Positions 1,059 to 60,379 of a DNA stretch of 64,000 nucleotides are shown here, one piece after another. The first letter of the stretch is position 1. Each line of letters opens with the position of its first letter. A program made the position numbers and the translations under genes. The stretch lies in the sequence record MZ234035.1; one strand, written 5' to 3'. The notes below the pieces were generated by a model, which worked only from the letters and a program-made list of their open reading frames with translations, did no database searches and had not been told where the DNA came from. The DNA is from Escherichia phage vB_EcoM-G3F7.

Positions 1059-1373
1059 ATGGAGGTAATGATGTTATACTCAAAGGCTCGTGAAATTTAC
1101 GAAACTAAAATTAAAGAAGCAGTATTTAAGTTCGCAACGACAATGCGATGGACAAATGACTGGGAGTATTCAAAAAATCATAAGAAGCCCATGGTGACAA
1201 GAAAGGCTCATATGTTAGTGTTAATAGACCGTGAGCAGATTAAAGCCCGAGAAGCCCTCCAGAATCATAAAAAGGCTGCCTTTGAATGGTTTATGGATAA
1301 CACTGCTCCTGAGACTAAGAAAGCGGTAAGCGCATGGTTCAGTGGAAAAAATTGTGAAAGAAGTTTCTTTTAG
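1059..1373 (+). CDS. hypothetical protein
   Basis: 104-aa ORF; GGAGG RBS precedes internal ATG at 1071, so true start may be 1071. Confidence 0.45.
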   Translation: MEVMMLYSKAREIYETKIKEAVFKFATTMRWTNDWEYSKNHKKPMVTRKAHMLVLIDREQIKAREALQNHKKAAFEWFMDNTAPETKKAVSAWFSGKNCERSFF

Positions 1374-1375
1374 TG

Positions 1376-1405
1376 GTTTACAAGACTGTTCCTCTGTGGT
1401 ACTAT
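1376..1405 (+). promoter_or_regulatory. T4-type early promoter
   Basis: GTTTAC, 18-nt spacer with TGG, TACTAT. Confidence 0.6.
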
Positions 1406-1433
1406 ACAACTATCAACTACGGAGGAACACAAA

Positions 1434-1961
1434 ATGAACGCTAAAGATATTTTCAACCTGGTAAATTACAACGATGGTAAATTTAAATCTGAAGCACAAA
1501 GTAAGTTCTTTAATGACATCTCAATCGAAGGTGAAATCACGGTTGACGGAGGACAAATTTACAAATCTCGTTGGAATTGGATCGTTATTATCGATGAGAT
1601 TGGTATTGTAGAAATTTACAAGAATACGAATAAAAATCGTACATTACACTGGTCTCGTGATACTAACGAACAGTACAAAAAGGATAAAGCATCTAAATTA
1701 TCTCGTGTAACTCAAGAAGATATTGAGTTCATCAAGAAAGATATTTTGATGTATGATAACTTAATTGCTGAAGAGCAAGCTGTTATTGATAAATTTGATG
1801 AGATTAAAGCTTCTCGTGAAATTCCTGATTTTATGAAAGAATCAGTAAATGAACGATACACTCTCATTTCAGAGCGTATTGAAACTTACAAAAAGCAAAG
1901 AGCTGAACGCCAGAATACTCTTCGGAAGTTTGAAGAACGGTTAAAGACGGTACTCGCATAA
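1434..1961 (+). CDS. hypothetical early protein
   Basis: 175-aa ORF immediately downstream of early promoter 1376-1405 and GGAGG RBS. Confidence 0.55.
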   Translation: MNAKDIFNLVNYNDGKFKSEAQSKFFNDISIEGEITVDGGQIYKSRWNWIVIIDEIGIVEIYKNTNKNRTLHWSRDTNEQYKKDKASKLSRVTQEDIEFIKKDILMYDNLIAEEQAVIDKFDEIKASREIPDFMKESVNERYTLISERIETYKKQRAERQNTLRKFEERLKTVLA

Positions 1962-3327: not shown

Positions 3328-4356
3328 ATGAAAACTCGTTCTCAAATTGAAGATATGGTTCGTAATGCCAGCTATACTCGTGATGTTATGACATTTTTGT
3401 GTGAAAATAATTTAGACCCTGATAAAGTTAATCGTGTTATTCATCACTTTAAGTATACGAATAGCAGTGAATGGGTGCGTAATTTTAGTAAAGCAGGGTA
3501 TATTACACAAATGACTGCTCGTGAACAGCTCACCGATTTCTGTAAAACTATTGATTATAAAAATCCTTTGATTGTTCAAGGCGTTGGTCAAAGTAAGGTC
3601 GATTTATCATCTGGATTTTTCAATCCAAATCATTATCGTATTGAATGGAGATTTATTGCTCTATTCCGTAAACAATTAAAGCAAATTTTGTCTACTGCTA
3701 GTCGATTAAAAGGCTCTGATATTAACTTAAAGAACCTGAAATTTGATGGTTATACTCTTCAGATGGAAGTAAGACCGTTAAAAGAAAATAATAGAACTGC
3801 ACGAATTAGCTTTAAGCCTAATACTAAAAATTCTCTTTCAATTTGTGAATGTCTTAAATCACAGCTGACAGAAGCATTTAAGTATATGGATGTTGTTGCT
3901 GCTGTTCAATCTAAGATTTTACCTCGTTTTGAGCGAAATTGGGAACATACAACAACATATGAACTTGATATGATCGTTTCATTTAAATATGAATTTTTGA
4001 GAAAGGATGAAATTGTTCAAGAGAAAAAGCAGGAAGTGCAAGATACCTTAAATTTAAATTTATCCAATTACTTATCAAACGATCCTAAATTTTGGATGTA
4101 TAGCTCAAGCAATATAGATGCATGTAAACTTAATAAAGTGAGTTTTCTTCCTACTGAAAATTCAAATTTTAAACCTGTAGAAAAATGGCACGCTGACGCG
4201 ATTGAGAAGTCTCTTAAGGCAGTAGATGATGAACTCGTTAAAGCGACCAATGAAGTGCTAGAAGCTGAAAAGGCGTTAGAACAAGCTCAGTCAAGGGTTC
4301 AAAATCTGACAAAGCAACGTTCTAAACTGAACAATGCACTAAATGCACTGAACTAG
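3328..4356 (+). CDS. hypothetical protein with C-terminal coiled coil (paralog B)
   Basis: 342-aa ORF; tail ...LEAEKALEQAQSRVQNLTKQRSKLNNALNALN; core resembles next two ORFs. Confidence 0.6.
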   Translation: MKTRSQIEDMVRNASYTRDVMTFLCENNLDPDKVNRVIHHFKYTNSSEWVRNFSKAGYITQMTAREQLTDFCKTIDYKNPLIVQGVGQSKVDLSSGFFNPNHYRIEWRFIALFRKQLKQILSTASRLKGSDINLKNLKFDGYTLQMEVRPLKENNRTARISFKPNTKNSLSICECLKSQLTEAFKYMDVVAAVQSKILPRFERNWEHTTTYELDMIVSFKYEFLRKDEIVQEKKQEVQDTLNLNLSNYLSNDPKFWMYSSSNIDACKLNKVSFLPTENSNFKPVEKWHADAIEKSLKAVDDELVKATNEVLEAEKALEQAQSRVQNLTKQRSKLNNALNALN

Positions 4357-4385
4357 TTTACTTTGCCACAAGGATGTGGTATAAT
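4356..4385 (+). promoter_or_regulatory. T4-type early promoter
   Basis: GTTTAC, 18-nt spacer, TATAAT. Confidence 0.6.
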
Positions 4386-4413
4386 GTTTTTACTTTCTAC
4401 TGAGGAGATTATT

Positions 4414-5415
4414 ATGACTCGTAACGAATATATCAAATCATTCAATAGCGTTATTGATGATAAAGCTATACCGATGTTTGGCCAAAATAGCGTTCTTTCT
4501 ATTATCAATCAATGGCTCAATAGTGTTGATGCAAGTATTGTTTCTTCTACTAAATTTATTCATGAAATTCGTAAAATTTCTAGCCGTGTAGATAAAGATG
4601 TTATCAAGAAAACCTTTAAAGAGTCTCGTCTTCTTTCATATTTGGTTAATCGGGATATTCTTGGTAATTTTGGGAAAGAAATTAAACGAACTAAAGATGT
4701 AGTAGGATACAATTGGTTCGGTGATGTTAATTCTTATCATCTTAATATTAAAGAAGACCCTGAGAATATTTTTACTCGTCGTTGGATCAGTAATTTCAGA
4801 CTTTTTAAGAAACAAATTCTAAAATCAGCTTCTAAATTATGTTATGGCGATTATCGTCAAATTCATCCTTTGGCTTCTGATATGATTATCATAAAAGAAT
4901 ATGAACTTGATAAAAATAAAGTATCTATTTTTGTGAATTATGGATTTTTTACACCAGAAACTAACCAAAAGAATATTAATAAATTTTTCTCAATTGCTAG
5001 CACTATAACTCGTCAATTAGAGACCGCATTACTTTGTATGGAAACAGTAGAAAATATTCATACATATCCTTTTAAGAATATATGCGGTTGGGAAGGATAT
5101 AAACTCGTAATTAGCCTTCGTGAAGTGAAATGTGCTTATTCACCTACTGATAAAGAAATTTACCAACAAAAATGTGATGAAATTGTGAATACTCCTAAAG
5201 AAGAAACTACCCTTGAGGAACTAATGGAATGTCTTGATGATTCACCTGAACCGATAGAAATTCGTCCAGAAGTTATTGCACTAGAAAAAGCTTATAAAGA
5301 AGTTCTAGAAATTTCTAATAAAGCGCAGAAAGAATATGAGCAGGCTAAAAGGATTTGGGAAGAATCTGTTAATCGTCTTGATCGTCTGGAACAAGCTTTA
5401 CAGTTAATTAAGTAA
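4414..5415 (+). CDS. hypothetical protein with C-terminal coiled coil (paralog C)
   Basis: ATG at 4414 after GAGGAG RBS; shares FKKQILKSASKL core with paralog B; heptad tail. Confidence 0.6.
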   Translation: MTRNEYIKSFNSVIDDKAIPMFGQNSVLSIINQWLNSVDASIVSSTKFIHEIRKISSRVDKDVIKKTFKESRLLSYLVNRDILGNFGKEIKRTKDVVGYNWFGDVNSYHLNIKEDPENIFTRRWISNFRLFKKQILKSASKLCYGDYRQIHPLASDMIIIKEYELDKNKVSIFVNYGFFTPETNQKNINKFFSIASTITRQLETALLCMETVENIHTYPFKNICGWEGYKLVISLREVKCAYSPTDKEIYQQKCDEIVNTPKEETTLEELMECLDDSPEPIEIRPEVIALEKAYKEVLEISNKAQKEYEQAKRIWEESVNRLDRLEQALQLIK

Positions 5416-13090: not shown

Positions 13091-13160
13091 ACATTCTGTA
13101 TATTACCATTCTAAGCTATCGTTCCCTTCTTATCATTCCCTAAAATAATTTCACAAAGTT

Positions 13161-13190
13161 GTTTACAACAAGTTCAAACTGTGGTATTAT
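13161..13190 (+). promoter_or_regulatory. T4-type early promoter
   Basis: GTTTAC, 18-nt spacer, TATTAT; A/T-rich upstream element. Confidence 0.6.
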
Positions 13191-13220
13191 TAACATATGA
13201 ATTGCCTTTGAGGATTTGAT

Positions 13221-13403
13221 ATGGTTGTGGTTGATAAAGAGATTAAAAAGGGACAATATTATTTTATTAATGGTAATGTTGTTCGTGTTACTTATGTAAA
13301 CGGTTTTGAAGTTTATTATCTTATACTCAAGTTACATAAACAGATGATTTGTGATCGTGCTGTATTTAGTTCAGTTGCTAAGGAAATTAAACTCCATGGG
13401 TAA
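13221..13403 (+). CDS. hypothetical protein
   Basis: 60-aa ORF downstream of early promoter 13161-13190. Confidence 0.35.
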   Translation: MVVVDKEIKKGQYYFINGNVVRVTYVNGFEVYYLILKLHKQMICDRAVFSSVAKEIKLHG

Positions 13404-27355: not shown

Positions 27356-27435
27356 ACAAGTAATATAAATCTATACTTAGGAAAAATAGATGATTCTAGG
27401 TCCTGTAAATTCATTAAAAATTTTTTCACAAAACT

Positions 27436-27465
27436 GTTTACAAGACTGTTCCTCTGTGGTACTAT
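27436..27465 (+). promoter_or_regulatory. T4-type early promoter (repeat cassette)
   Basis: GTTTACAAGACTGTTCCTCTGTGGTACTAT, near-identical to 1376-1405. Confidence 0.6.
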
Positions 27466-27499
27466 ACAATTATCAACTAATACGGATTTGGAGAATAAA

Positions 27500-27736
27500 A
27501 TGAAAATTGTTATGGGATGCTTAGCAGTTTGTTTAGTTGCATTAGCAGCAGTTCCATTTGTTAGTGTTGAAAATGATACTCAACCTGTGATTGAATCTAG
27601 CACCGTTATTCACACTAATGGTAAAATATCAGTTAAAATTGATGATAATCTTCATGTGAATACTAATGGAACGCTGGGTGTTCAATTAGGTAATATCTGT
27701 GTAAGCACTACTGGAGTAATTACTACTTGTATTTGA
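27500..27736 (+). CDS. hypothetical secreted protein
   Basis: 78 aa from ATG 27500; N-terminal signal-like hydrophobic segment; downstream of early promoter. Confidence 0.45.
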   Translation: MKIVMGCLAVCLVALAAVPFVSVENDTQPVIESSTVIHTNGKISVKIDDNLHVNTNGTLGVQLGNICVSTTGVITTCI

Positions 27737-31724: not shown

Positions 31725-33152
31725 GTGGTAGAAATTATTCTTTCTCATCTCATATTTGATCAAGCTTATTTTTCAAAAGTTTGGCCATATATGGATTCAG
31801 AATATTTTGAAAGTGGTCCAGCTAAAAATACATTCAAATTAATTAAATCTCATGTCAATGAGTATCATAGCGTTCCATCTATTAATGCGTTAAATGTTGC
31901 ATTAGAAAATAGTTCATTTACTGAAACAGAATATTCTGGTGTAAAAACACTTATTTCAAAACTAGCTGATTCTCCGGAAGACCACAGCTGGTTAGTAAAA
32001 GAAACAGAAAAATATGTTCAGCAAAGGGCGATGTTTAATGCTACGTCTAAAATAATCGAAATTCAAACTAATGCTGAGCTTCCTCCGGAAAAACGAAATA
32101 AGAAAATGCCAGATGTAGGTGCTATTCCTGACATCATGCGCCAAGCATTATCAATTTCATTTGATAGTTACGTTGGTCATGATTGGATGGATGACTACGA
32201 AGCACGCTGGCTATCTTATATGAATAAAGCTCGTAAAGTTCCATTTAAACTCAGAATTCTAAACAAAATTACGAAAGGCGGAGCTGAAACTGGAACACTG
32301 AACGTTTTAATGGCTGGCGTTAACGTTGGTAAGTCATTAGGTCTGTGTTCATTGGCAGCAGATTATTTGCAGCTCGGACATAATGTTCTTTACATTTCCA
32401 TGGAAATGGCAGAAGAAGTCTGTGCTAAGCGTATTGACGCTAACATGCTTGATGTTTCTCTTGATGACATTGATGATGGGCATATTTCTTACGCTGAGTA
32501 TAAAGGAAAAATGGAAAAATGGCGTGAGAAATCTACTCTCGGCCGTTTAATCGTTAAACAGTATCCTACTGGTGGAGCAGATGCTAATACATTTCGGTCG
32601 CTTTTAAATGAATTAAAGCTCAAGAAGAATTTTGTTCCAACAATCATTATTGTTGACTATCTAGGTATTTGTAAATCTTGCCGCATTAGAGTTTATTCAG
32701 AAAATAGTTACACAACTGTTAAAGCCATCGCAGAAGAATTGCGTGCTCTGGCTGTTGAAACTGAAACTGTTCTTTGGACTGCAGCACAGGTTGGTAAACA
32801 AGCTTGGGACTCTTCCGATGTTAACATGAGTGATATCGCAGAATCTGCTGGTCTTCCAGCGACAGCTGATTTTATGCTTGCGGTCATTGAAACCGAGGAG
32901 TTAGCAGCTGCTGAACAACAACTCATTAAGCAAATCAAATCACGATATGGTGATAAGAATAAATGGAATAAGTTTTTGATGGGTGTTCAAAAAGGAAATC
33001 AGAAATGGGTAGAAATTGAACAAGATTCTACTCCAACTGAAGTGAACGAAGTAGCAGGTTCACAACAGATTCAGGCTGAACAGAATCGCTATCAAAGAAA
33101 CGAATCGACTCGAGCTCAGTTAGATGCTTTGGCGAATGAATTAAAATTTTAG
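31725..33152 (+). CDS. 41: replicative helicase gp41 (DnaB-like)
   Basis: 475 aa; Walker A GVNVGKS; apparent GTG start. Confidence 0.95.
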   Translation: MVEIILSHLIFDQAYFSKVWPYMDSEYFESGPAKNTFKLIKSHVNEYHSVPSINALNVALENSSFTETEYSGVKTLISKLADSPEDHSWLVKETEKYVQQRAMFNATSKIIEIQTNAELPPEKRNKKMPDVGAIPDIMRQALSISFDSYVGHDWMDDYEARWLSYMNKARKVPFKLRILNKITKGGAETGTLNVLMAGVNVGKSLGLCSLAADYLQLGHNVLYISMEMAEEVCAKRIDANMLDVSLDDIDDGHISYAEYKGKMEKWREKSTLGRLIVKQYPTGGADANTFRSLLNELKLKKNFVPTIIIVDYLGICKSCRIRVYSENSYTTVKAIAEELRALAVETETVLWTAAQVGKQAWDSSDVNMSDIAESAGLPATADFMLAVIETEELAAAEQQLIKQIKSRYGDKNKWNKFLMGVQKGNQKWVEIEQDSTPTEVNEVAGSQQIQAEQNRYQRNESTRAQLDALANELKF

Positions 33153-33181
33153 TTTACAAGCTGACAAGACTATGGTATAGT
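33153..33181 (+). promoter_or_regulatory. T4-type early promoter upstream of dmd
   Basis: GTTTAC, 17-nt spacer, TATAGT. Confidence 0.5.
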
Positions 33182-33210
33182 AGTCTTGTTGGTTAAATGA
33201 GGAGATTGTT

Positions 33211-33393
33211 ATGGAATTGGTAAAGGTAGTTTTTATGGGGTGGTTTAAGAATGAAAGCACGTTTACTAAAGAAACCACAATGATGAAAGATGACGTTCAA
33301 TGGGCTACTACTCAGTATGCTGAAGTTAATAAAGCATTAGTTAAAGCTTTCATTGATGACAAGAAAGTATGTGAAGTGGATTGCCGAGGATAA
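33211..33393 (+). CDS. dmd: Dmd-like antitoxin
   Basis: 60 aa, directly downstream of gene 41 and an early promoter; size and position match T4 dmd. Confidence 0.6.
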   Translation: MELVKVVFMGWFKNESTFTKETTMMKDDVQWATTQYAEVNKALVKAFIDDKKVCEVDCRG

Positions 33394-33394: not shown

Positions 33395-33652
33395 ATGCAT
33401 ATTGTTTTATTTAAACCTACTCCGTATAACGTCAGGAAAAATACACAATTCAAAGCACTTATTGCCGATACGTGGGAATTGGTGTTAGATATTCCAGCAG
33501 AAGAAAGTCCTCCATTTGGTCGAGTGGAATTTATTAAGTTTGCTGTTCGCCCTACGAAGCGGCAGATTCGTCAGTGTAAAAGGTATTTTCGTAAGATCGT
33601 TAAGCTAGAGAAACAGTTTGTAACATGTGATTACGCAAAAGTTTTAAAATAA
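33395..33652 (+). CDS. hypothetical basic protein (61.4 position)
   Basis: 85 aa from ATG 33395; Lys/Arg-rich. Confidence 0.45.
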   Translation: MHIVLFKPTPYNVRKNTQFKALIADTWELVLDIPAEESPPFGRVEFIKFAVRPTKRQIRQCKRYFRKIVKLEKQFVTCDYAKVLK

Positions 33653-33710
33653 CTGTTTACTTTTATTGGAAATTGAGATACTATAAACATAAACTACTGA
33701 GGAGATTATC

Positions 33711-34004
33711 ATGAAAAAATTTATCTTTGCTACAATTTTTGCTTTAGCTTCTTGTGCTGCTCAGCCTGCTATGGCAGGTTATGATAAAGATTTGTGCGAA
33801 TGGTCTATGACTGCGGATCAGACTGAGGTTGAAACTCAAATTGAAGCAGATATTATGAATATCGTTGAGCGTGATCGTCCTGAAATGAAAGCTGAAGTGC
33901 AAAAACAGCTTAAGTCTGGTGGTGTAATGCAGTATAATTACGTTCTGTATTGTGATAAAAACTTTAATAATAAAAATATCATCGCTGAAGTGGTAGGTGA
34001 ATAA
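33711..34004 (+). CDS. sp: Spackle-like periplasmic protein
   Basis: 97 aa with N-terminal signal peptide; size and position match T4 sp. Confidence 0.6.
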   Translation: MKKFIFATIFALASCAAQPAMAGYDKDLCEWSMTADQTEVETQIEADIMNIVERDRPEMKAEVQKQLKSGGVMQYNYVLYCDKNFNNKNIIAEVVGE

Positions 34005-36947: not shown

Positions 36948-36975
36948 AAGGACTCCTTCGGGAGTCCTTTTTTCA
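36948..36975 (+). terminator. intrinsic terminator after soc
   Basis: AAGGACTCC-TTCG-GGAGTCCTT followed by TTTTTC. Confidence 0.75.
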
Positions 36976-36983
36976 TTTAAATG

Positions 36984-37013
36984 GTTTACTTTCCAAAATG
37001 AGTATGGTATAAT
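36984..37013 (+). promoter_or_regulatory. T4-type early promoter
   Basis: GTTTAC, 18-nt spacer, TATAAT. Confidence 0.55.
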
Positions 37014-37039
37014 AGAATTATCTTATAGAGGAGAGCGCT

Positions 37040-37246
37040 ATGTTAAATCGTTGGATTAAACCGAATGAAGATTTAGATATTATCATTTCACGACACGTAA
37101 TGAAGAAATATGAATTGCAACCATGGTCTACAGAAGTTGTTGTGCATTCATTTATGATGTACGCAGATGGTTCTGTTGAATTTAATGCAGAGATTCGATA
37201 CGATTATGGCGAGAAGCAAGTTGAATTCAAAAGAGGCTTTTTGTAA
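37040..37246 (+). CDS. hypothetical protein
   Basis: 68-aa ORF downstream of early promoter 36984-37013. Confidence 0.45.
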   Translation: MLNRWIKPNEDLDIIISRHVMKKYELQPWSTEVVVHSFMMYADGSVEFNAEIRYDYGEKQVEFKRGFL

Positions 37247-38891: not shown

Positions 38892-39074
38892 ATGGATTTA
38901 TTTGAGATGTTAGAAGATAATCATTCTACGAATATCCAGAATGATTCTAGTGATTATAAGAAAGAGTACCGTATAGTATTACAGAATTATGGAATTGAAG
39001 CCCCAGATGCTCTTCTAGAAGAACTAGCTTCATACCATCTTGACCCTCCGCCTTGGGCTCCTTGGGCAAAATAA
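38892..39074 (+). CDS. hypothetical acidic protein
   Basis: 60-aa ORF. Confidence 0.4.
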   Translation: MDLFEMLEDNHSTNIQNDSSDYKKEYRIVLQNYGIEAPDALLEELASYHLDPPPWAPWAK

Positions 39075-39085
39075 TTCAAAAAGTT

Positions 39086-39115
39086 GTTTACTTTCCTTTC
39101 TAACGATGATATGAT
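39086..39115 (+). promoter_or_regulatory. T4-type early promoter upstream of modB
   Basis: GTTTAC, 18-nt spacer, TATGAT. Confidence 0.45.
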
Positions 39116-39141
39116 AGCTTCTGAAGTATACGGAGGCTATC

Positions 39142-39765
39142 ATGATTATTAATCTTGCAGATGTTGAACAGTTATCTATAAAAGCTGAAAGCGTTGATTT
39201 TCAATATGATATGTATAAAAAGGTCTGTGAAAAATTTACTGACTTTGAGCAGTCTGTTCTTTGGCAATGTATGGAAGCTAAAAAGAATGAAGAGCTTCAT
39301 CGGCAATTGAATAAAATCATTAAAAAGCATTTAACTAAATCGCCTTATCAGTTATATCGTGGTATATCAAAATCGACAAAAGAACTTATTAAAGATTTAC
39401 AAGTTGGAGAAGTGTTTTCAACGAACAGGGTAGATTCATTTACTACTAGTTTGCATACAGCGTGTTCTTTTTCTTATGCTGAATATTTTACTAAAATAAT
39501 ACTTCGTTTAAAAACTAATAAAGCTTTTAATTATTCTGACCATATCAGCGATATTATACTTTCTTCTCCTAATACTGAGTTTAAGTACACGTATGAAGAT
39601 ACTGATGGGCTAGATTCAGAGCGTACTGATAACTTAATGATGATTGTGCGTGAACAAGAATGGATGATTCCAATTGGAAAGTATAGAATAACTTCTATTT
39701 CAAAAGAAAAATTACACGATTCATTTGGAACATTTAAAGTTTATGATATTGAGGTAGTTGAATGA
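39142..39765 (+). CDS. modB: ADP-ribosyltransferase ModB-like
   Basis: 207 aa; R...STN...E-x-E-like motifs (YRGIS, EQEWMIP). Confidence 0.6.
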   Translation: MIINLADVEQLSIKAESVDFQYDMYKKVCEKFTDFEQSVLWQCMEAKKNEELHRQLNKIIKKHLTKSPYQLYRGISKSTKELIKDLQVGEVFSTNRVDSFTTSLHTACSFSYAEYFTKIILRLKTNKAFNYSDHISDIILSSPNTEFKYTYEDTDGLDSERTDNLMMIVREQEWMIPIGKYRITSISKEKLHDSFGTFKVYDIEVVE

Positions 39766-40364: not shown

Positions 40365-40420
40365 TGGAAGGACTTAGATTCATTATACCATGAAATTTTT
40401 GAAGCATTTTTCATAAAATT

Positions 40421-40450
40421 GTTTACAAGCCAAGGTAAAAATGTTATAGT
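40421..40450 (+). promoter_or_regulatory. T4-type early promoter
   Basis: GTTTAC, 18-nt spacer, TATAGT. Confidence 0.5.
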
Positions 40451-40485
40451 ATAGTAGTCAATCGTCCGTAAGATGTGAGAAAAAT

Positions 40486-41232
40486 ATGAAACTGTCTAAT
40501 AATCAAATTCGTAAAATTAAACGTCGTTTAGAGCACACTCAGGCATCTGCAAAAAGACGTTCTAAAGATTTTAACTTAGACTTCAATTACATTAAGAATA
40601 TTTTAGATCAAAAAGTTTGTGCCTATTCAGGAGAACCTTTTGATAATCGTATTGAAGGAGAGAAATTATCATTAGAACGTTTTGATAATAACATTGGATA
40701 CATTAAAGGGAATGTTATTGCAGTAAAGAAAAAGTATAATACATTTCGTTCTGATTATACTTTAGAAGAGTTGATTGAAAAACGGGATTTATTTGCTTTG
40801 CGAATTGGTCGTTCATCTGCGAAAAAAGTTCATAAACTAAATTTAGATGAAAAGAAATGGGCTAAAATCAAAAAGACTTATAATCAAATTAAAGCTATAC
40901 AGAAAAAGCGTGAAAATCGAATTGAACACATTTCTCAGCTTTCTAAATCAAAACAGACCTCTGACATTAAGCTAAGAATTATAGCACTTAAAGCTCGTAT
41001 TGATGGTTCTCGCATAGCAGAAGGCGCTGAAGTTGTTAAACTGAACGTTCTTCTTAAAGGCTCGGATTGGAAAATTGTGAAAAAGTTGTCAGAAGCAGAA
41101 ATGCAATATGATGTGTGTGATAAAATTATTCAAGGTGTAGAGCGGTATCAAAACTTGTCTTTTATTGATAAACTTAAACTGAAAAGAGGATACCCGCTAA
41201 ATTGTTCAATTTTTAAACTTATCCGAGGATAA
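40486..41232 (+). CDS. srd: hypothetical protein, Srd-like by position
   Basis: 248-aa basic ORF between modA and dda; identity by synteny only. Confidence 0.35.
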   Translation: MKLSNNQIRKIKRRLEHTQASAKRRSKDFNLDFNYIKNILDQKVCAYSGEPFDNRIEGEKLSLERFDNNIGYIKGNVIAVKKKYNTFRSDYTLEELIEKRDLFALRIGRSSAKKVHKLNLDEKKWAKIKKTYNQIKAIQKKRENRIEHISQLSKSKQTSDIKLRIIALKARIDGSRIAEGAEVVKLNVLLKGSDWKIVKKLSEAEMQYDVCDKIIQGVERYQNLSFIDKLKLKRGYPLNCSIFKLIRG

Positions 41233-43595: not shown

Positions 43596-44278
43596 TGTTT
43601 GATTTTATTATAGATTTTGAAACAATGGGAAGTGGTGAAAAAGCAGCTGTTATTGATTTAGCTGTAATTGCTTTTGACCCTAACCCAGAAGTAGTTGAAA
43701 CATTTGATGAATTAGTTTCACGCGGCATTAAAATCAAATTTGATTTAAAAAGCCAAAAAGGACATCGTCTTTTTACTAAAAGCACTATCGAATGGTGGAA
43801 AAATCAGTCTCCTGAAGCTCGAAAAAATATTGCACCGTCCGATGAAGATGTAAGCACTATCGACGGTATTGCGAAATTTAATGATTACATCAATGCACAT
43901 AATATCGATCCTTGGAAATCTCAAGGCTGGTGCCGTGGAATGTCGTTTGATTTTCCAATTTTAGTCGATCTCATTCGTGATATTCAACGTCTTAATGGTG
44001 TTTCTGAGAATGAACTTGACACATTTAAGTTAGAACCATGTAAATTCTGGAATCAGCGTGATATTCGTACCAGAATTGAAGCACTTCTGCTTGTTCGTGA
44101 TATGACCACGTGTCCTCTTCCAAAAGGAACTTTAGATGGATTCGTTGCGCATGATTCTATTCATGACTGCGCGAAAGACATCCTGATGATGAAGTACGCT
44201 TTGCGATATGCTATGGGTCTTGAAGATGCTCCATCAGAGGAAGATTGCGATCCTCTATCTCTTCCAACAAAACGATAA
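43595..44278 (+). CDS. dexA: exonuclease A DexA
   Basis: 227 aa; DEDD-like exonuclease; matches T4 DexA length. Confidence 0.8.
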   Translation: MFDFIIDFETMGSGEKAAVIDLAVIAFDPNPEVVETFDELVSRGIKIKFDLKSQKGHRLFTKSTIEWWKNQSPEARKNIAPSDEDVSTIDGIAKFNDYINAHNIDPWKSQGWCRGMSFDFPILVDLIRDIQRLNGVSENELDTFKLEPCKFWNQRDIRTRIEALLLVRDMTTCPLPKGTLDGFVAHDSIHDCAKDILMMKYALRYAMGLEDAPSEEDCDPLSLPTKR

Positions 44279-44284
44279 AAAGTT

Positions 44285-44314
44285 GTTTACTTCCTCGGTT
44301 AGTTGTGGTATTAT
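44285..44314 (+). promoter_or_regulatory. T4-type early promoter
   Basis: GTTTAC, 18-nt spacer with TGG, TATTAT. Confidence 0.55.
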
Positions 44315-44341
44315 AACACCATAGCTACTGAGGATAATAAA

Positions 44342-44842
44342 ATGAAAATTTATCGTGTTGAATCATCGTTTAGTATTCTTGATTATGAAGATGCTATAAC
44401 AATACGTCGAAATCTTTGTGTTCAAATAACGCCGTACAGGAGTATAATAGATTCATGGAGCGAAGAGTGGCTATTACACGTAGGTTATGACAGACCTAAT
44501 TTTATGCATCATAGCGATAATAATAAAAGAATTCCTTTACCACACGAAGATAAACTATTAGTTAAAAACGCTAATATAGTAATTAATACTAAGTTCAAGA
44601 AAGATTATGTTGGAGTAGAATATCATATTCCAGGATGGTTTATAGCTCTTTATCATTTTGCTTTCGCTAGCGAATATGATATGATGAGATGGTTCACACG
44701 AGAAGAGCGTGAAGAATTAGCTTCGAAAGGATTTTATCTTGCTGTATACGAAGTACCAGATGACCAAGTTATCGTTGGCGGGCATCAAGTAATGTTCCGT
44801 AAATCCCATGCTGAACTTGTAGATTTTATTGAAATGAGATAA
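44342..44842 (+). CDS. hypothetical protein
   Basis: 166 aa from ATG 44342 downstream of early promoter 44285-44314. Confidence 0.5.
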   Translation: MKIYRVESSFSILDYEDAITIRRNLCVQITPYRSIIDSWSEEWLLHVGYDRPNFMHHSDNNKRIPLPHEDKLLVKNANIVINTKFKKDYVGVEYHIPGWFIALYHFAFASEYDMMRWFTREEREELASKGFYLAVYEVPDDQVIVGGHQVMFRKSHAELVDFIEMR

Positions 44843-44844: not shown

Positions 44845-45390
44845 ATGAAATTTAATTATAATCCTGAATACACACCGAATCCGGCAGCTAAACTGATTGA
44901 TTTTGACGTTGTAAGTACTTATGTATGCCCTGTTAAACCACTGGAAATTAAGGAACCTACTATGACTACCGCTATTGAAATCGGCAAAACCTACAAACTG
45001 GTTGAACCTAAAATTAAAACTAATGCCTTGATTTCTGGTCATAAAACTCTGACTGATGTTTTTGGCGAAGGCGAATTTATTGTTGAAGAATTTGCCAAAA
45101 GTGAGTGGTTTGACAAATCTTACGTCATCCACGGTCGCCGGTTAGATAATAACAAAATAAAGAAAAACCTGGTTTATGAAGATGAGTTCATCCTGTTCCA
45201 AGAAGTTGAAGAACAAGACCCTACAGACCTGTTGTGTGCTGCTGTGTCTATCCGTCGTCCTTTTGATAATCCTATCTGTGGTTGGGTAACAGACCAGTGG
45301 ATTGAAGATGGTGTTGAGCTTCTGAACGTTGTCCATGCAGGAGATTTTAGTGTAGTACCTCGTAGTGCGGTGGTAGCTATTTTGAATTAA
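44845..45390 (+). CDS. MotB-family paralog
   Basis: 181-aa ORF; C-terminus WIEDGVELLNVVHAGDFSVVP resembles next ORF. Confidence 0.5.
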   Translation: MKFNYNPEYTPNPAAKLIDFDVVSTYVCPVKPLEIKEPTMTTAIEIGKTYKLVEPKIKTNALISGHKTLTDVFGEGEFIVEEFAKSEWFDKSYVIHGRRLDNNKIKKNLVYEDEFILFQEVEEQDPTDLLCAAVSIRRPFDNPICGWVTDQWIEDGVELLNVVHAGDFSVVPRSAVVAILN

Positions 45391-45392
45391 TA

Positions 45393-45422
45393 GTTTACAA
45401 ACTCTTGGGACCAGAGTATAAT
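45393..45422 (+). promoter_or_regulatory. T4-type early promoter upstream of motB
   Basis: GTTTAC, 18-nt spacer, TATAAT. Confidence 0.55.
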
Positions 45423-45466
45423 GGTCCTGTGGAGTATAAAATCTTTTTAACAAGTGAGAGATAACT

Positions 45467-45955
45467 ATGATTATTAATATTGGTGAAATTGCTCGTGTAT
45501 CTGATAAATCCCGTTCTAAAGCAGCAGGAAAATTGGTCGAAGTTGTAAGCATTCAGCTTAAACACGGTGTTAAAGATGAAGATTCTGAAGTAAAAGTACG
45601 TATCATTGCTAAAGATGGAATGTCTAAGCCCCAGTTTGGTTATGTTCGATGGAAATTTCTTGAGCCTGCGTTTTTGAAAGCTGTTCCTGCTAAAGGAATT
45701 GAAACGATTGATACTTCGCATGTAGGTGTAGACTTTAAGTGGAAACTCGGTCAAGCTATCAAGTTCATTGCTCCTTGTGAATTTAAATTTATCAAAGATG
45801 ATGGAAAGGCTGTTTATACTCGCGCTATGTGTGGATACATTACCGATCAATGGGTAGAAGATGGCGTTAAGTTGTACAACGTGGTATTTTTAGGAACATA
45901 TAAAGTCATTCCTGAAAGTTGGATTAAACACTACAGCAATGCTCTCTATGCATAA
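45467..45955 (+). CDS. motB: MotB-like protein
   Basis: 162 aa as T4 MotB; position upstream of the gene 39 cluster. Confidence 0.5.
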   Translation: MIINIGEIARVSDKSRSKAAGKLVEVVSIQLKHGVKDEDSEVKVRIIAKDGMSKPQFGYVRWKFLEPAFLKAVPAKGIETIDTSHVGVDFKWKLGQAIKFIAPCEFKFIKDDGKAVYTRAMCGYITDQWVEDGVKLYNVVFLGTYKVIPESWIKHYSNALYA

Positions 45956-46126
45956 AGTTTAAAATTTTTTCATAAAACTATATACATCAGTAGTTGATTA
46001 TGGTACTATATCAATATCAACTACTGATACAGAAAACAACTTGGAGAATAAAATGGATAATTCGTTAAAGGTGCGCTGATACTCTTCTGAAACGCATCGC
46101 TCCAATGTTCAATTAATGAGGAAATT

Positions 46127-47643: not shown

Positions 47644-49464
47644 GTGATGATTAAGAATGAAATTAAAATTCTGAGCGATATTGAACATATCAAAAAGCGT
47701 AGCGGCATGTACATTGGCTCTTCTGCTAATGAAATGCATGAGCGCTTTCTGTTTGGTAAATGGGAAAGTGTTCAGTATGTACCTGGTCTTGTTAAGCTTA
47801 TTGATGAAATTATCGATAACTCAGTAGATGAAGGTATTCGTACTAAGTTTAAATTCGCAAATAAAATTAATGTTACTATTAAAAACAATCAAGTAACAGT
47901 TGAAGATAACGGTCGTGGTATTCCACAAGCGATGGTTAAAACACCTACCGGTGAAGAAATTCCTGGTCCAGTTGCTGCATGGACTATTCCAAAAGCGGGT
48001 GGTAACTTCGGTGATGATAAAGAACGCGTCACCGGCGGTATGAATGGTGTTGGTTCTAGTTTGACAAACATTTTTTCTGTGATGTTTGTCGGTGAAACTG
48101 GTGATGGTCAAAATAATATTGTAGTTCGTTGTTCAAATGGCATGGAAAATAAATCATGGGAAGATATTCCTGGAAAATGGAAAGGAACTCGTGTTACTTT
48201 CATTCCAGATTTTATGTCATTTGAAACTAATGAATTATCTCAAGTTTATCTTGACATTACACTAGATCGTCTCCAGACACTTGCTGTTGTTTATCCTGAT
48301 ATTCAATTTACCTTTAATGGTAAAAAGGTTCAGGGCAATTTTAAGAAATATGCACGACAGTATGATGAACATGCTATCGTTCAAGAACAAGAAAATTGTT
48401 CTATTGCGGTTGGTCGTTCACCCGACGGTTTTCGTCAATTAACATACGTCAATAACATTCATACTAAGAATGGTGGCCATCACATTGACTGTGTTATGGA
48501 TGATATTTGTGAAGACCTTATTCCACAAATCAAACGCAAGTTCAAAATTGATGTAACTAAAGCACGCGTTAAAGAATGTTTGACTATCGTTATGTTTGTT
48601 CGTGATATGAAAAACATGCGATTTGATTCTCAAACTAAAGAGCGTTTGACTTCTCCATTTGGTGAAATCCGTAGTCATATTCAGCTTGATGCTAAAAAGA
48701 TTTCACGTGCTATTTTGAATAATGAAGCAATTCTGATGCCAATTATTGAAGCTGCTTTGGCTCGTAAATTGGCGGCAGAAAAAGCAGCAGAAACTAAAGC
48801 AGCTAAAAAGGCATCTAAAGCTAAGGTTCATAAACATATCAAAGCGAATCTTTGTGGTAAAGATGCTGATACTACATTGTTCTTGACTGAGGGTGATTCT
48901 GCTATCGGATATCTTATTGATGTTCGTAATAAAGAACTTCATGGTGGTTATCCATTACGTGGTAAAGTTCTCAACAGTTGGGGTATGTCATATGCTGATA
49001 TGCTTAAAAACAAAGAACTATTTGATATTTGCGCAATCACTGGATTAGTTCTTGGTGAAAAAGCTGAAAACTTGAATTATCATAATATTGCTATTATGAC
49101 TGATGCTGACCATGATGGTCTAGGAAGCATTTATCCTTCTCTGCTTGGATTTTTTAGTAATTGGCCAGAACTGTTTGAGCAAGGAAGAATTCGCTTCGTC
49201 AAAACTCCTGTAATCATCGCTCAGGTCGGTAAAAAACAAGAATGGTTTTATACAGTCGCTGAATATGAGAGTGCCAAAGATGCTCTACCTAAACATAGCA
49301 TCCGTTATATTAAAGGACTTGGCTCTTTGGAAAAATCTGAATATCGTGAGATGATTCAAAACCCAGTATATGATGTTGTTAAACTTCCTGAGAACTGGAA
49401 AGAGCTTTTTGAAATGCTCATGGGAGATAATGCTGACCTTCGTAAAGAATGGATGAGCCAGTAG
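47644..49464 (+). CDS. 39: topoisomerase II large subunit gp39 (GyrB-like), unsplit
   Basis: 606 aa continuous; ATPase motif EIIDNSVDE; no gene 60 split or mobA insert. Confidence 0.9.
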   Translation: MMIKNEIKILSDIEHIKKRSGMYIGSSANEMHERFLFGKWESVQYVPGLVKLIDEIIDNSVDEGIRTKFKFANKINVTIKNNQVTVEDNGRGIPQAMVKTPTGEEIPGPVAAWTIPKAGGNFGDDKERVTGGMNGVGSSLTNIFSVMFVGETGDGQNNIVVRCSNGMENKSWEDIPGKWKGTRVTFIPDFMSFETNELSQVYLDITLDRLQTLAVVYPDIQFTFNGKKVQGNFKKYARQYDEHAIVQEQENCSIAVGRSPDGFRQLTYVNNIHTKNGGHHIDCVMDDICEDLIPQIKRKFKIDVTKARVKECLTIVMFVRDMKNMRFDSQTKERLTSPFGEIRSHIQLDAKKISRAILNNEAILMPIIEAALARKLAAEKAAETKAAKKASKAKVHKHIKANLCGKDADTTLFLTEGDSAIGYLIDVRNKELHGGYPLRGKVLNSWGMSYADMLKNKELFDICAITGLVLGEKAENLNYHNIAIMTDADHDGLGSIYPSLLGFFSNWPELFEQGRIRFVKTPVIIAQVGKKQEWFYTVAEYESAKDALPKHSIRYIKGLGSLEKSEYREMIQNPVYDVVKLPENWKELFEMLMGDNADLRKEWMSQ

Positions 49465-49493
49465 TTTACTTTACCACAAGGATGTGGTATAAT
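49464..49493 (+). promoter_or_regulatory. T4-type early promoter upstream of rIIA region
   Basis: GTTTAC, 18-nt spacer with TGG, TATAAT; overlaps gene 39 stop. Confidence 0.6.
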
Positions 49494-49518
49494 TAATTGG
49501 GCAAATGAGGATATTGAA

Positions 49519-49722
49519 ATGAAATCATATAAAGTAAATTTAGAACTTTTTGATAAAGCAGTTCATCGAGAATATAGAATCATTCAACGCTTTTTCGATA
49601 TGGGAGAAGCTGAAGAGTTTAAAAACCGCTTTAAGGATATTAGAGATAAAATTCAATCCGACACCGCAACTAAAGATGAACTACTAGAAGTTGCTGAAGT
49701 TATTAAACGCAATATGAATTAA
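49519..49722 (+). CDS. hypothetical protein (rIIA.1 position)
   Basis: 67-aa ORF between 39 and rIIA after early promoter. Confidence 0.5.
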
Positions 49723-53146: not shown

Positions 53147-53704
53147 ATGCAGAAAACGAATCCGGGTTTGCAGAGACTATTTCAGATTCCGTCATTTACC
53201 CTATCGAACAGTGACTTGACTAGTGAAATGAAGGTCAAAATTGCTGATACTGCAAGATACTCTTTAAAACAAAACCCGAACCAGGATAAAGCAGAAGTTA
53301 TCGAAAGATGTCGTATCGCTGTGTACGCAGAGTTTTTTGTGGCAGATTGGCTAAGAGGGTATGTTAACAAAGGCCAAGAGGATGTTAATGACCCGTATAC
53401 ATACGCATGGGATGTACTGGCGCATCCAAAATACTGCGGGCTTCGTGTAGAAGTTAAGACACATCAAACTGACTCACGTTGGATTTCGGTAACAACAGGA
53501 TGCAGCGGAGAGTATCCATATGGTTCTGGAATAAATCTAGGGCCCATTCTAAATCATCAAGTCGCTGACTGTATAATTATATTCAACACTAAAGAAATTC
53601 ATCCAGGTGTCATCCAGTACACTCCGAAGTTCATCGGTGACAGAGAAGACCTTCGTAAGGTTGTAAGAAAAAGCAACTACAATGGATGGTATCTTTCCAT
53701 TTAA
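53147..53704 (+). CDS. denB: endonuclease IV DenB-like
   Basis: 185 aa; size and position after rIIB match T4 denB. Confidence 0.7.
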   Translation: MQKTNPGLQRLFQIPSFTLSNSDLTSEMKVKIADTARYSLKQNPNQDKAEVIERCRIAVYAEFFVADWLRGYVNKGQEDVNDPYTYAWDVLAHPKYCGLRVEVKTHQTDSRWISVTTGCSGEYPYGSGINLGPILNHQVADCIIIFNTKEIHPGVIQYTPKFIGDREDLRKVVRKSNYNGWYLSI

Positions 53705-53720
53705 AAATTTTCACAAAACG

Positions 53721-53750
53721 GTTTACATACCACAAGGACTGTGGTACTAT
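53721..53750 (+). promoter_or_regulatory. T4-type early promoter (repeat cassette)
   Basis: GTTTAC, 18-nt spacer with TGG, TACTAT. Confidence 0.6.
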
Positions 53751-53777
53751 ACAACTATCAGCTACGGAGGAGTAAAA

Positions 53778-54041
53778 ATGAAATTTAAATTTTATTACGC
53801 TAAACATAAAATTACCGGTGAATTTATTGCATTTACGACTTCAACTACAGATGAAGGAGATATTTTTACTGCAGTATTTTTATCAAAATGGGAATCAGAT
53901 CAACCTTACTTATCATCACGTGAAGATCTCCAACGATTAGTTAATGGAGAATATAATGATTCATGGTCATATTTAGTCCATGATTGTGTTAAAAAGGCAA
54001 TAAAACAAAAACACTTGGAAATCGTTGAGATTGAACTATGA
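53778..54041 (+). CDS. hypothetical protein
   Basis: 87 aa from ATG 53778 downstream of early promoter 53721-53750. Confidence 0.45.
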   Translation: MKFKFYYAKHKITGEFIAFTTSTTDEGDIFTAVFLSKWESDQPYLSSREDLQRLVNGEYNDSWSYLVHDCVKKAIKQKHLEIVEIEL

Positions 54042-54226
54042 GTTCATTATGGTGGTGTTTCGTTTGGTTAATTAGTATTCCATTAATTTGTTTAACATTT
54101 ACTTTTGTGATGAGGTTATTATGAAAATTTTGAATTCTGTGCTTATTGCTTGTGCGTGGTGGGTTGCGCAAGTTTCAGCAGTAGTAGTTGGTATTCACAT
54201 TTATTACGAATATTTTTAAAAAAGTT

Positions 54227-54256
54227 GTTTACAAGACTGTTCTTCCGTGGTATTAT
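54227..54256 (+). promoter_or_regulatory. T4-type early promoter (repeat cassette)
   Basis: GTTTACAAGACTGTTCTTCCGTGGTATTAT. Confidence 0.6.
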
Positions 54257-54384
54257 TACCCTATCAACTACGGAGGAACAGAAAATGAAAAAGATTGTTA
54301 AAGCTATATGGAATGTAGTTATAATACTAATAGTTTTGAGTATATTCCCAATCGTTTTAATGATTGATGTATTAAACGCTTACT

Positions 54385-57315: not shown

Positions 57316-57346
57316 AGGGAGAGCCTCGGCTCTCCCTTTTTATTTC
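57316..57346 (+). terminator. intrinsic terminator after gene 52 cluster
   Basis: GGGAGAGC-CTCG-GCTCTCCC followed by TTTTTATTT. Confidence 0.75.
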
Positions 57347-57366
57347 AAAAATTTTTTCACAAAACG

Positions 57367-57396
57367 GTTTACAACCAAAGCATACTGTGGTACTAT
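57367..57396 (+). promoter_or_regulatory. T4-type early promoter (repeat cassette)
   Basis: GTTTAC, 18-nt spacer with TGG, TACTAT. Confidence 0.6.
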
Positions 57397-57445
57397 ACAA
57401 CTATCAAATAAATGAACTGAAACAAACAACCCGGAGATACAAAAA

Positions 57446-57673
57446 ATGAAATTTAAAATCGAAAACGAAATCGTTAAAGCTAAAAATGCTCTGACTGCTA
57501 ACAAACTGGTTGTAGATGGTATTGAATATGATATCTGTGGAGTTCGTGAAGAAAAACCTGGTGTTCTGACTTTCTTCACAATGATTTTTAAATTTAAAGG
57601 TGACACAGAATTCAAACAGTTTGATTTTGCCCATGAAGACGAAATCGAAGTTCGTAATCTGAACATTAAGTAA
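57446..57673 (+). CDS. hypothetical protein
   Basis: 75-aa ORF downstream of early promoter 57367-57396. Confidence 0.5.
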   Translation: MKFKIENEIVKAKNALTANKLVVDGIEYDICGVREEKPGVLTFFTMIFKFKGDTEFKQFDFAHEDEIEVRNLNIK

Positions 57674-57712
57674 GTACTTTATTAGAGCTCTTGAAAAAGA
57701 GTGCAAAAAAGT

Positions 57713-57741
57713 GTTTACTTCTGCTTTAAACATGATACTAT
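57713..57741 (+). promoter_or_regulatory. T4-type early promoter upstream of motA
   Basis: GTTTAC, 17-nt spacer, TACTAT. Confidence 0.55.
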
Positions 57742-57778
57742 AGACCTATCAAATAAATGAACTGAAACGGAGATTAAA

Positions 57779-58414
57779 ATGTCTAAAGTAACTTACATCA
57801 TCAAAGCTTCTAACGATATTCTGAATGAAAAAACTGCTGCGATTTTAATTACCATTGCTAAGAAAGATTTCATTACAGCTGCAGAAGTTCGTGAGGTGCA
57901 TCCAGATTTAGGCAATGCAGTAGTTAATAGTAATATTGGGGTATTGATTAAAAAAGGCCTGGTGGAGAAATCTGGTGATGGATTAATCATTACTGGTGAA
58001 GCTCAGGATATTATTTCAAATGCAGCAACTTTATACGCACAGGAAAACGCTCCGGAACTGCTGAAAAAACGAGCAACTCGTAAAGCTCGCGAAATTACTT
58101 CTGATATGGAAGAAGATAAAGACTTCATGTTAAAACTTTTAGATGAAAATGGATTTGTTCTTAAAAAGGTTGAAACTTACCGCAGTAACTATCTCGCTAT
58201 TTTAGAAAAACGCACTCACGGAATTCGTAATTTTGAAATTAACAACAATGGAAATATGCGAATTTTTGGATACAAAATGATGGAACATCATATTCAGAAA
58301 TTTACTGACATCGGAATGTCATGTAAAATCGCTAAAAACGGTAATGTGTATCTTGACATTAAACGTTCGGCAGAAAACATTGAAGCTGTAATCACTGTAG
58401 CATCTGAACTGTGA
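57779..58414 (+). CDS. motA: middle-transcription activator MotA
   Basis: 211 aa; N-terminus MSKVTYIIKASNDILNEKTAAILITIAKKDF; matches T4 MotA. Confidence 0.9.
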   Translation: MSKVTYIIKASNDILNEKTAAILITIAKKDFITAAEVREVHPDLGNAVVNSNIGVLIKKGLVEKSGDGLIITGEAQDIISNAATLYAQENAPELLKKRATRKAREITSDMEEDKDFMLKLLDENGFVLKKVETYRSNYLAILEKRTHGIRNFEINNNGNMRIFGYKMMEHHIQKFTDIGMSCKIAKNGNVYLDIKRSAENIEAVITVASEL

Positions 58415-60230: not shown

Positions 60231-60379
60231 GTTATAATCTTGAAATGGTAATCGAGCATAATGTAGCTCAGGAACGTGAGTCGTTCAAGGAATTCGTAGA
60301 AAAAATTTTTGAAGAAAATAACACAGACCAGTTTACAAATCAAACGTCTGATGATATTATAACAAAGTCAACTAATTGA
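60227..60379 (+). CDS. small hypothetical acidic protein
   Basis: 50-aa ORF; ATGA overlap with arn stop. Confidence 0.3.
   Translation: MSYNLEMVIEHNVAQERESFKEFVEKIFEENNTDQFTNQTSDDIITKSTN

Follow-up and report, generated by a model that had tools for sequence, protein, structure and literature searches.

A repeated cassette in the early-gene region of vB_EcoM-G3F7

The DNA analysed here, referred to as the window, is a stretch of 64 kb from the Escherichia phage vB_EcoM-G3F7, and its content is that of a Tequatrovirus early-gene region. The plus strand carries the T4 early and middle genes nrdC.x, nrdD, 55, a-gt, 47, 46, 45, 44, 62, regA, 43 and imm, followed by 42, uvsX, 41, dmd, sp, 61, 56, soc, mrh, modB/A, srd and dda, and finally dexA, motB, cef, 39, rIIA, rIIB, denB, ndd, 52, motA, arn and asiA; from 60.7 kb on, the minus strand carries the late genes t, 38 and 37. 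No known RNA family from Rfam is found anywhere in the window. The Tequatrovirus record vB_EcoM-CHD94UKE2 (MZ234031.1) is 100% identical over the 13.1 kb that was queried (the first 8 kb and 52900-58000), and it contains a 55-bp tandem duplication at 11715 that is not present in the window.

An earlier note on this DNA had described near-identical early-promoter cassettes recurring at nine places, and the module is present at all nine. Copies are named here by the position of the G of GTTTAC: the five main copies are 1376, 27436, 53721, 54227 and 57367, and the four diverged ones 13161, 4356, 49464 and 44285. Nine further copies had been overlooked, at 33152, 33655, 36984, 39086, 40421, 45393 (weak), 45980, 57713 and 60331. 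A position-weight matrix built iteratively from the obvious copies identified 16 strong sites, and 17 at a lower threshold. The profile scan of the window gave 17 hits on the plus strand and none on the minus strand, against a chance expectation of 0.07 hits per window in first-order Markov simulations; the plus-strand sites score 17-56 bits, and the top score on the minus strand is 5.5 bits. A scan with a variable spacer added 57713, which has a 16-bp spacer, bringing the family to 17 sites plus one (Table 1).

The 31-mer GTTTACAAGACTGTTCCTCTGTGGTACTATA, comprising the −35, the spacer and the −10, has two exact occurrences, at 1376 and 27436, where none is expected, and an exact 34-mer is common to these two copies only. 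The repeat observation is real and lies far beyond chance. "Near-identical" overstates the similarity: across 66-67 nt, copies match the reference copy at 61-87% of positions, and the module string quoted for them combines parts of several copies. A scan for generic sigma-70 hexamers was uninformative (64 promoter-like sites, 78 expected), and only the extended motif is specific. Scanning IMG/VR with a spacer-specific pattern returned only 9 loci, which came from a few T4-like contigs and were not enough for an analysis of contexts, and GenBank phage records were used instead.

Table 1. Cassettes and associated features in the window, with the positions of their T4 counterparts.
Feature	Position	Strand	T4 counterpart	Details
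nrdC.8-homologue cassette	1346..1436	+	53943	site of the earlier note
nrdC.8 cassette, −35 TTTACA	1377-1382	+
nrdC.8 cassette, −10 TACTAT	1400-1405	+
nrdC.8 cassette, predicted +1	~1412	+
nrdC.8 cassette, GGAGG	1421-1425	+
nrdC.8 cassette, ATG	1434	+
nrdC.4-homologue cassette	4326..4416	+	50973	without UP consensus
55.6-homologue cassette	13131..13223	+	41706	a Pe41 is named in PMC6024815
Cassette 3' of gene 43 (imm.1)	27406..27502	+	27080	perfect strong RegB site GGAGAATAAAA at 27490-27500 in leader
ORF78	27500..27736	+		signal-peptide-like small protein between cassette leader and imm.1; 325 phage records
dmd cassette	33122..33213	+	20612	9-bp inverted repeat ACAAGACTA/TAGTCTTGT across −10
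sp (spackle) cassette	33625..33713	+	20109
mrh.2 terminator hairpin, then cassette	36948..37042	+	15288	hairpin 36948-36969; Pe15.0
modB cassette	39056..39144	+	13186	Pe12.8
srd cassette	40391..40488	+	11851	Pe11.5
motB.2 cassette	44255..44344	+	8218
motB weak copy	45363..45469	+	7215	score 17; without TGn; 6-bp inverted repeat across −10
cef cassette	45950..46079	+	6630	−35 variant ATATAC; perfect RegB site 46043-46053
rIIA.1 cassette	49434..49521	+	2458	31/32 identical to 4356 copy
Cassette 3' of denB	53691..53780	+	167086 (ndd.6)	7-bp spacer inverted repeat TACCACA/TGTGGTA
ORF87	53778..54041	+		denB-side cassette; 662 records, two allelic classes ~55% identical
ndd.4 cassette	54197..54287	+	166807	87% identity over 67 nt to 1376 copy
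ORF75 terminator hairpin, then cassette	57316..57448	+	163673	hairpin 57316-57337; T4 motA promoter position
ORF75 (phrog_10955)	57446..57673	+		167 phage records; none in T4
Direct repeat, left	57388..57423	+		36 nt, 33/36 identical, −10 and leader; brackets ORF75 module
Direct repeat, right	57733-57768	+		partner of the left repeat
Second cassette, directly 5' of motA	57683..57781	+		GTTTAC at 57713, 16-bp spacer
asiA cassette	60301..60395	+	161211	inside asiA.1

Anatomy of the cassette

Similarity among the copies spans about 90 nt and takes in, from 5' to 3', an A/T-rich UP element, the GTTTAC −35, the TGn/−10, the ATCAAC start region, a GGAG Shine-Dalgarno and the ATG. Counted from the G of GTTTAC, information content stays above zero between about −20 and about +47. 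The earlier note had taken similarity confined to the promoter hexamers as a sign against its reading; conservation extends well past them. The UP region, with the consensus aAAAATTTTTTCACAAAAc and positive information from about −20 to −1 before GTTTAC, is missing in 4356 and 49464. It is followed by a conserved run of GTTTACa, tGTGGTAyTATa and the start region caACTATCAAc, and then by the Shine-Dalgarno. GTTTAC is found in 17 of the 18 sites, the exception being 45980, whose ATATAC is the same in its T4 counterpart. The −35 and −10 are 17 bp apart at 17 sites and 16 bp apart at 57713, and TG is present at −15/−14 in 57713 and in 15/17 fixed-spacing sites, the exceptions being 33655 (GAGATACTAT) and 45393. 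The start codon marks the end of the unit: 1372-1438 and 54223-54289 are 87% identical as far as ATGAA, and unrelated past it.

A GGAGG ribosome-binding site had been ascribed to each copy; three of the five main copies have it, whereas the other two have only GGAG, and by our count by eye GGAG lies within the Shine-Dalgarno of 11 of 16 cassette leaders. RegB of T4 cleaves at GGAG within early translation-initiation regions, strong sites having the form GGAGRAYARAA (PMC3014915). Perfect matches to this form occur twice in the 64 kb (27490 and 46043; 0.49 expected), both in cassette leaders. With GGAG in most cassette Shine-Dalgarno sequences and strong sites in leaders, the cassettes resemble the RegB targets of T4 early mRNAs, and cleavage is predicted here. 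Given the promoter, the leader and the GGAG/RegB features, the most fitting reading of the unit is a complete cassette for immediate-early expression.

What follows the unit is more diverse than the short uncharacterised ORF that had been described as usual. Some copies do precede small unknown ORFs, whereas others stand before dmd, sp, modB, srd, cef, motA and asiA. The map of cassettes is useful for annotation, and some gene calls in the record begin inside promoters, for example the CDS at 4384 and at 27445.

Correspondence with the early promoters of T4

The early promoters of T4 have GTTTAC at −36 to −31, a GT-rich stretch 5' of the −10, an A-rich UP-like region and further regions of consensus, and form the "UP/−35/TGn/−10" class (PMC1524935; PMC2988021). 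Applied to the syntenic T4 DNA, the same matrix finds a one-to-one counterpart at the same gene junction for 17/17 fixed-spacing sites, the T4 GenBank record being without promoter features and the matching therefore made by gene junction and promoter names. All 17 sites are oriented with early transcription and lie 5' of early genes orthologous to those of T4. For some T4 counterparts, Pe11.5, Pe12.8, Pe15.0 and Pe41, activity right after infection with the unmodified host RNA polymerase is known, and RNA-seq, RT-qPCR or primer extension served as the assay (PMC6024815). In motif, 17-bp spacing, orientation and junctions there is no difference in kind between the cassettes and the Pe class, and promoter activity in vB_EcoM-G3F7 is predicted by orthology with T4. 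Compared with T4, this phage has one more promoter-plus-ORF module, at motA, and two of its cassettes are followed by extra ORFs.

Exchange of sequence between copies

The spacer offers a view of the copies apart from their function, as 14 of its positions carry almost no consensus. Identity over these positions is 14 between 1376 and 27436, 13 between 4356 and 49464, and 12 between 54227 and each of 1376 and 27436, where a column-shuffle null reaches 10 of 14 at its 99.9th percentile. In part, the likeness among copies exceeds the functional consensus. The CCACAAGGA common to 4356, 49464 and 53721 is accounted for by an inverted repeat with the conserved TGTGGTA.

A comparison of 12 genomes over rIIB-motA and of 4 genomes over the whole window shows exchange of sequence among cassettes. 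The ndd.4 cassette has two spacer alleles, TTCCG and CCTCTG, and CCTCTG is the sequence of the nrdC.8 paralogue; from GTTTAC through ATG, the ndd.4 cassette of JoYop matches the nrdC.8 cassette of the window at 58 of 59 nt. The ORF75/motA cassette of fFiEco06 bears the spacer AGCATAAAGCTTTA of the T4 nrdC.10 cassette, and across phages ORF87 is preceded by at least 4 leader types, each of which matches leaders at other loci. The gene-43/imm.1 cassette has two spacer alleles, each of which is found both with and without ORF78; the window, T4, JoYop and ECp13 represent the four combinations, and recombination inside a stretch of about 60 nt is needed to produce them. Cassettes contain breakpoints as well as mosaic junctions.

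Small genes gained and lost at cassettes

Three ORFs that are not in T4 (ORF78, ORF87 and ORF75) start inside cassettes and are polymorphic among relatives. The flanking ORF content, which the earlier note had proposed to compare among T-even genomes, thus differs at cassette sites instead of being identical in all relatives. ORF75 and ORF87 have no similarity to one another, and the three variable ORFs are unrelated and belong to different PHROGs without assigned function, so that the similarity of the cassettes is not a by-product of duplicated genes.

ORF78 is missing from T4 and ECp13, and ATGAAAAT forms a microhomology at both of its junctions; in some cassette-edge events, such microhomology at the start codon amounts to only about 8 nt. 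Start-codon microhomology of this kind and length is present at many gene starts. At the place of ORF87, T4 has an 8-codon remnant whose leader and first 12 coding nt are those of its own imm.1 cassette; JoYop and ECp13 have a different 68-aa ORF at this cassette, and slur13 has both ORFs. Between the cef cassette (45980) and cef, the window has nothing more than an 8-codon mini-ORF (46053-46079); the mini-ORF is also found in T4, and JoYop and ECp13 have an 89-aa ORF instead. At the sp junction (33655), JoYop has 630 bp and a different cassette. Tiny "scar" ORFs behind cassettes are marks of past gene loss.

The ORF75 module across genera

ORF75 comes with a second promoter (57713), its first cassette being the one in the T4 motA promoter position, and the module is bracketed by a direct repeat of the −10 and leader (Table 1). 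This 36-nt repeat would be the obvious substrate if recombination between neighbouring elements were to form promoter-plus-ORF circles. The tract 57403-57759 is about 99% identical to the Dhakavirus IME281, with about 75-80% identity in the flanking 52 and motA, and both edges of this tract lie within cassettes. In the Salmonella phage S16 (Gelderlandvirus) the ORF75 homologue is found elsewhere, between the nrdC.11 and nrdC.10 homologues, with a terminator before it and a 101-nt direct repeat of the local cassette on both sides; a Klebsiella phage has a bracketed ORF75-type arrangement in yet another context. By genus, the locus is motA in Tequatrovirus and Dhakavirus and nrdC.10 in Gelderlandvirus. 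ORF75 homologues bracketed by direct repeats of a cassette are present in 4 genomes, at least 3 genera and at least 2 loci. A 128-bp insertion at the motA cassette of PhiZZ23 was considered and rejected as a cassette exchange, being a local tandem duplication of the end of motA.1 and the terminator.

Stem-loops

The cassettes had been said usually to follow a terminator hairpin. A strong upstream stem-loop is found at only 2 of 17 sites, 36984 and 57367, whose hairpins fall in the 1.5th and 0.4th percentile of the 60-nt folding energies of the window; these two sites excepted, the folding energy of the 60 nt 5' of the cassettes is typical of the window, and upstream hairpins as a general feature were rejected. 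In the region from −70 to +50, a perfect stem of at least 7 bp is present at 5/17 sites, against 10% of background windows, and stems of at least 9 bp at 3/17, against 0.9%. Three of the five stems of at least 7 bp sit within the promoter itself (49464, 53721 and 33152), and in 49464 and 53721 the inverted repeat TACCACA/TGTGGTA lies between the −35 and −10. In the 4356 copy the spacer CCACAAGGATGTGG pairs with the extended −10 as a 5-bp inverted repeat, and the perfect-stem search over −70 to +50 found no stem longer than 5 bp in the main copies 1376, 27436 and 54227. The stem-loop that gives the promoter-early stem-loop (PeSL) elements their name is a feature of a minority of copies, and the family as a whole does not have it.

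Share of genome plasticity at cassettes

Chaining of BLAST blocks between the window and T4, JoYop and ECp13 revealed 27 early-region loci with an indel or a replacement, and 5 of these 27 have a breakpoint in a cassette. The cassettes with such edges are 5 of the 18 (27436, 33655, 45980, 53721 and 57367/57713). Under a per-base null 2.0 cassette breakpoints are expected (P = 0.045), a marginal excess. Under a per-junction null, with 120 gene junctions, 4.05 are expected against the 5 observed (P = 0.38), which is no enrichment at cassettes, and with the three comparator genomes the junctions hit are 5/18 for cassettes and 22/102 for the others (Fisher P = 0.38). Many of the remaining events involve homing endonucleases, the nrdD intron, the gene 60 insertion and junctions without a cassette. 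Most of the plasticity in the early region is not cassette-linked.

Over rIIB-motA, all three cassette junctions vary among the 12 genomes, this stretch being a biased sample that was picked for its cassettes. With no excess at the level of junctions, the cassettes are one route of shuffling and not its demonstrated main driver; the proposal that they drive modular gene shuffling is borne out case by case, but lacks junction enrichment and has the stem-loop in a minority of copies. Some caution is in order, as the cassettes account for about one-fifth of the structural differences in the 64 kb, no more than their share of gene junctions.

Relation to known systems

PeSLs have been proposed as sites for the insertion, deletion and replacement of small ORFs, and mini-circles were shown for RB49/phi1 (Arbiol 2010, PMC2839356); the idea was extended to T4/PST and KVP40/nt-1, with the promoter consensus TTTACW-N17-TAYWAT and one example in the denB-ndd region (Comeau 2014, PMC4122927). 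Earlier work discussed in PMC2839356 includes that of Repoila (1994) on the internal-protein loci of T-even phages and that of Mosig (1998) on deletions in T4. The cassettes share with PeSLs an AT-rich region with an early promoter, a Shine-Dalgarno and a start codon, dispersed in plastic early regions, a position often before small unknown ORFs, the edges of indels or replacements within the unit and direct repeats that bracket an ORF; the published ndd.4/.5 example from T4/PST is located in the denB-ndd region, where the 53721 and 54227 copies are found as well. They differ from PeSLs in that a stem of at least 7 bp is found in only about 5/17 copies and an upstream terminator in 2/17, and in the lack of indel enrichment. 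The proposed resemblance to PeSL cassettes of T4-type phages therefore extends to promoter, Shine-Dalgarno and indel features, and stops at the stem-loop. In function the cassettes act as the PeSL model would have it, but this holds for a minority of the structural differences.

In being short conserved intergenic sequences that provide homology for module exchange, the cassettes are like the "linkers" of Botstein, and the ORF75 unit, with its own promoter and a preceding terminator, is like the "morons" of lambdoid phages. Unlike in these systems, the linker here is the promoter itself, and the insertions are in the early sense and have a phage-like base composition; reading the promoter as linker follows the descriptions in PMC2839356 and PMC1524935. 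T4 early promoters are a classical and thoroughly studied class, and shuffling by PeSLs has been published too, so the cassettes do not represent a novel type of element; the ORF75 module found across genera and the four combinations at imm.1 add clean new illustrations.

Function and evolution of the cassettes

We consider it highly probable that the repeats are sigma-70-dependent immediate-early promoters fused to a leader and ribosome-binding site, with exchange between copies and an occasional role in crossover. Host RNA polymerase would bind the UP element, the GTTTAC −35, the TGn extended −10 and the −10. Transcription would begin about 7 nt past the −10, at the conserved ATCAAC, of which the A is the predicted start because GTTTAC is numbered −36 to −31 in published work. 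The leader would be some 20-40 nt long and carry the GGAG Shine-Dalgarno; since this doubles as a RegB cleavage site in T4, the first gene should, judging from the T4 literature, be expressed in a brief burst. Most of the likeness among copies would be functional consensus, and copies would also trade sequence by gene conversion or ectopic homologous recombination. Occasionally a crossover within a cassette would insert, delete or replace a small ORF, either alone or together with a promoter, also between genera, and the pathway is probably the general homologous recombination of T4 acting on short homology.

Pure functional convergence, by which selection towards a rich early-promoter consensus would account for the likeness and recombination would have no role, is an improbable reading. 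It fits the peaks of information content at known RNA polymerase contact positions, the positional conservation of every fixed-spacing site in T4 and the fact that indels are no commoner at cassettes than at other junctions, but not the non-consensus spacer positions, of which 12-14 of 14 are identical within sub-families, nor the alleles that match the paralogue sequence of another locus. The occurrence of all four combinations of spacer and ORF78 and the edges of the high-identity ORF75 tract inside cassettes likewise speak against it, and as a complete explanation convergence is largely refuted.

It is similarly doubtful that the cassettes are preferred, actively stimulated recombination sites. 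Such stimulation could come via the open complex or an R-loop at strong promoters, or via a protein that recognises TACTATA..CTATCAA; if true, T4-like genera would have a shared docking system for promoter-plus-ORF modules. Less probable still is a dedicated, integron-like or site-specific system in which a phage protein recognises the cassette or its stem-loop and moves mini-circles of promoter and ORF: the bracketed ORF75 homologues in several genera, the enrichment of stems of at least 9 bp and the experimentally shown RB49/phi1 mini-circles would suit it, but no recombinase is implicated here and the authors of PMC2839356 found none either, the crossovers are scattered over the spacer, the −10/leader and the start codon with no single fixed site, most copies have no stem-loop and indels are not enriched at the level of junctions.

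As immediate-early promoters joined to a leader and a ribosome-binding site, the cassettes explain how the takeover genes of T4-like phages are switched on within seconds of infection, in line with textbook or published knowledge. They also illustrate, as has already been published, one way in which small accessory genes pass from one related phage to another with the transcription of neighbouring genes left undisturbed.

Open reading frames behind the promoter cassettes

Both in the window and in T4, complete early-promoter cassettes stand immediately 5' of mini-ORFs of only eight codons (see table). Full ORFs occupy the positions of both in related phages, and the mini-ORFs look like the scars of deleted ORFs. 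At the sp junction of phage JoYop (~34110 in window orientation) the early-promoter cassette differs from that of the window; a 10-bp inverted repeat made by its spacer and leader, AGCTGATAGA/TCTATCAGCT, spans the -10 element in an arrangement similar to that of the dmd promoter at window 33152.

Several database CDS calls overlap the cassettes, either starting within them or reading across them, and are probably mis-annotations; one of them is the call for the nrdC.4 homologue, whose database start precedes that used in T4 by 30 nt. The record of the closely related phage vB_EcoM-CHD94UKE2 (MZ234031.1) also has a 55-bp tandem duplication in the nrdG region, without counterpart in the window at 11715, and its annotation splits nrdG into three fragments; this may reflect a genuine variant that shifts the reading frame, or else an error of assembly in the record.

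Features recorded by coordinate in the window and in related genomes
Feature	Location	Remark
Mini-ORF MDNSLKVR	window 46053-46079	precedes cef
Mini-ORF MKIAEIEL	T4 167030-167004 (approx.)	precedes ndd.6
CDS calls overlapping cassettes	window 4384 and 27390; MZ234031.1 CDS 4384-5415, 27445-27558, 53741-53830	
G+C-rich UUCG-type hairpins	window 14016-14043, 17661-17691, 22365-22401, 24535-24562, 47572-47602, 52847-52874, 53075-53111	
17-mer AATGAGGAAATTATGAT	window 22414-22430, 46115-46131, 49721-49737	starts of gene 44, cef and rIIA

Other repeats and structural variants

A second family of dispersed repeats consists of G+C-rich hairpins (AAGGGCTTCGGCCCTT) with a UUCG-type tetraloop followed by T-rich tails; none of the seven window copies neighbours a promoter cassette, and their probable role is to terminate transcription or to stabilise RNA. 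Near pin, two copies of a 63-nt direct repeat (83% identical; window 8238-8300 and 8451-8513), consisting of the 3' end of pin, enclose an extra small ORF (~8320-8496) that is absent from T4, JoYop and ECp13; this ORF is an inserted gene, and the repeat that brackets it is not a promoter. Citrobacter phage PhiZZ23 carries a 128-bp tandem duplication (4765-4892, corresponding to window ~57350) of the end of motA.1 and its terminator hairpin, with the junction within an A/T run belonging to the UP element of the motA promoter. Seven of 12 relatives have, between denB.1 and denB (window ~53125-53133), a segment of 213-242 bp which is absent from the window and from T4; it carries a 330-bp ORF overlapping a shortened denB call, and no promoter cassette is present at its junction.

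A shared translation-initiation sequence

The 17-mer AATGAGGAAATTATGAT, which comprises a Shine-Dalgarno sequence and start codon, occurs in three exact copies in the window, against a chance expectation of 0.11 matches even with two mismatches allowed. When the gene 44 and rIIA copies are extended they share 83% identity over 46 nt. The 17-mer may be a translational operator common to gene 44, cef and rIIA, with RegA, tentatively, as the regulator.
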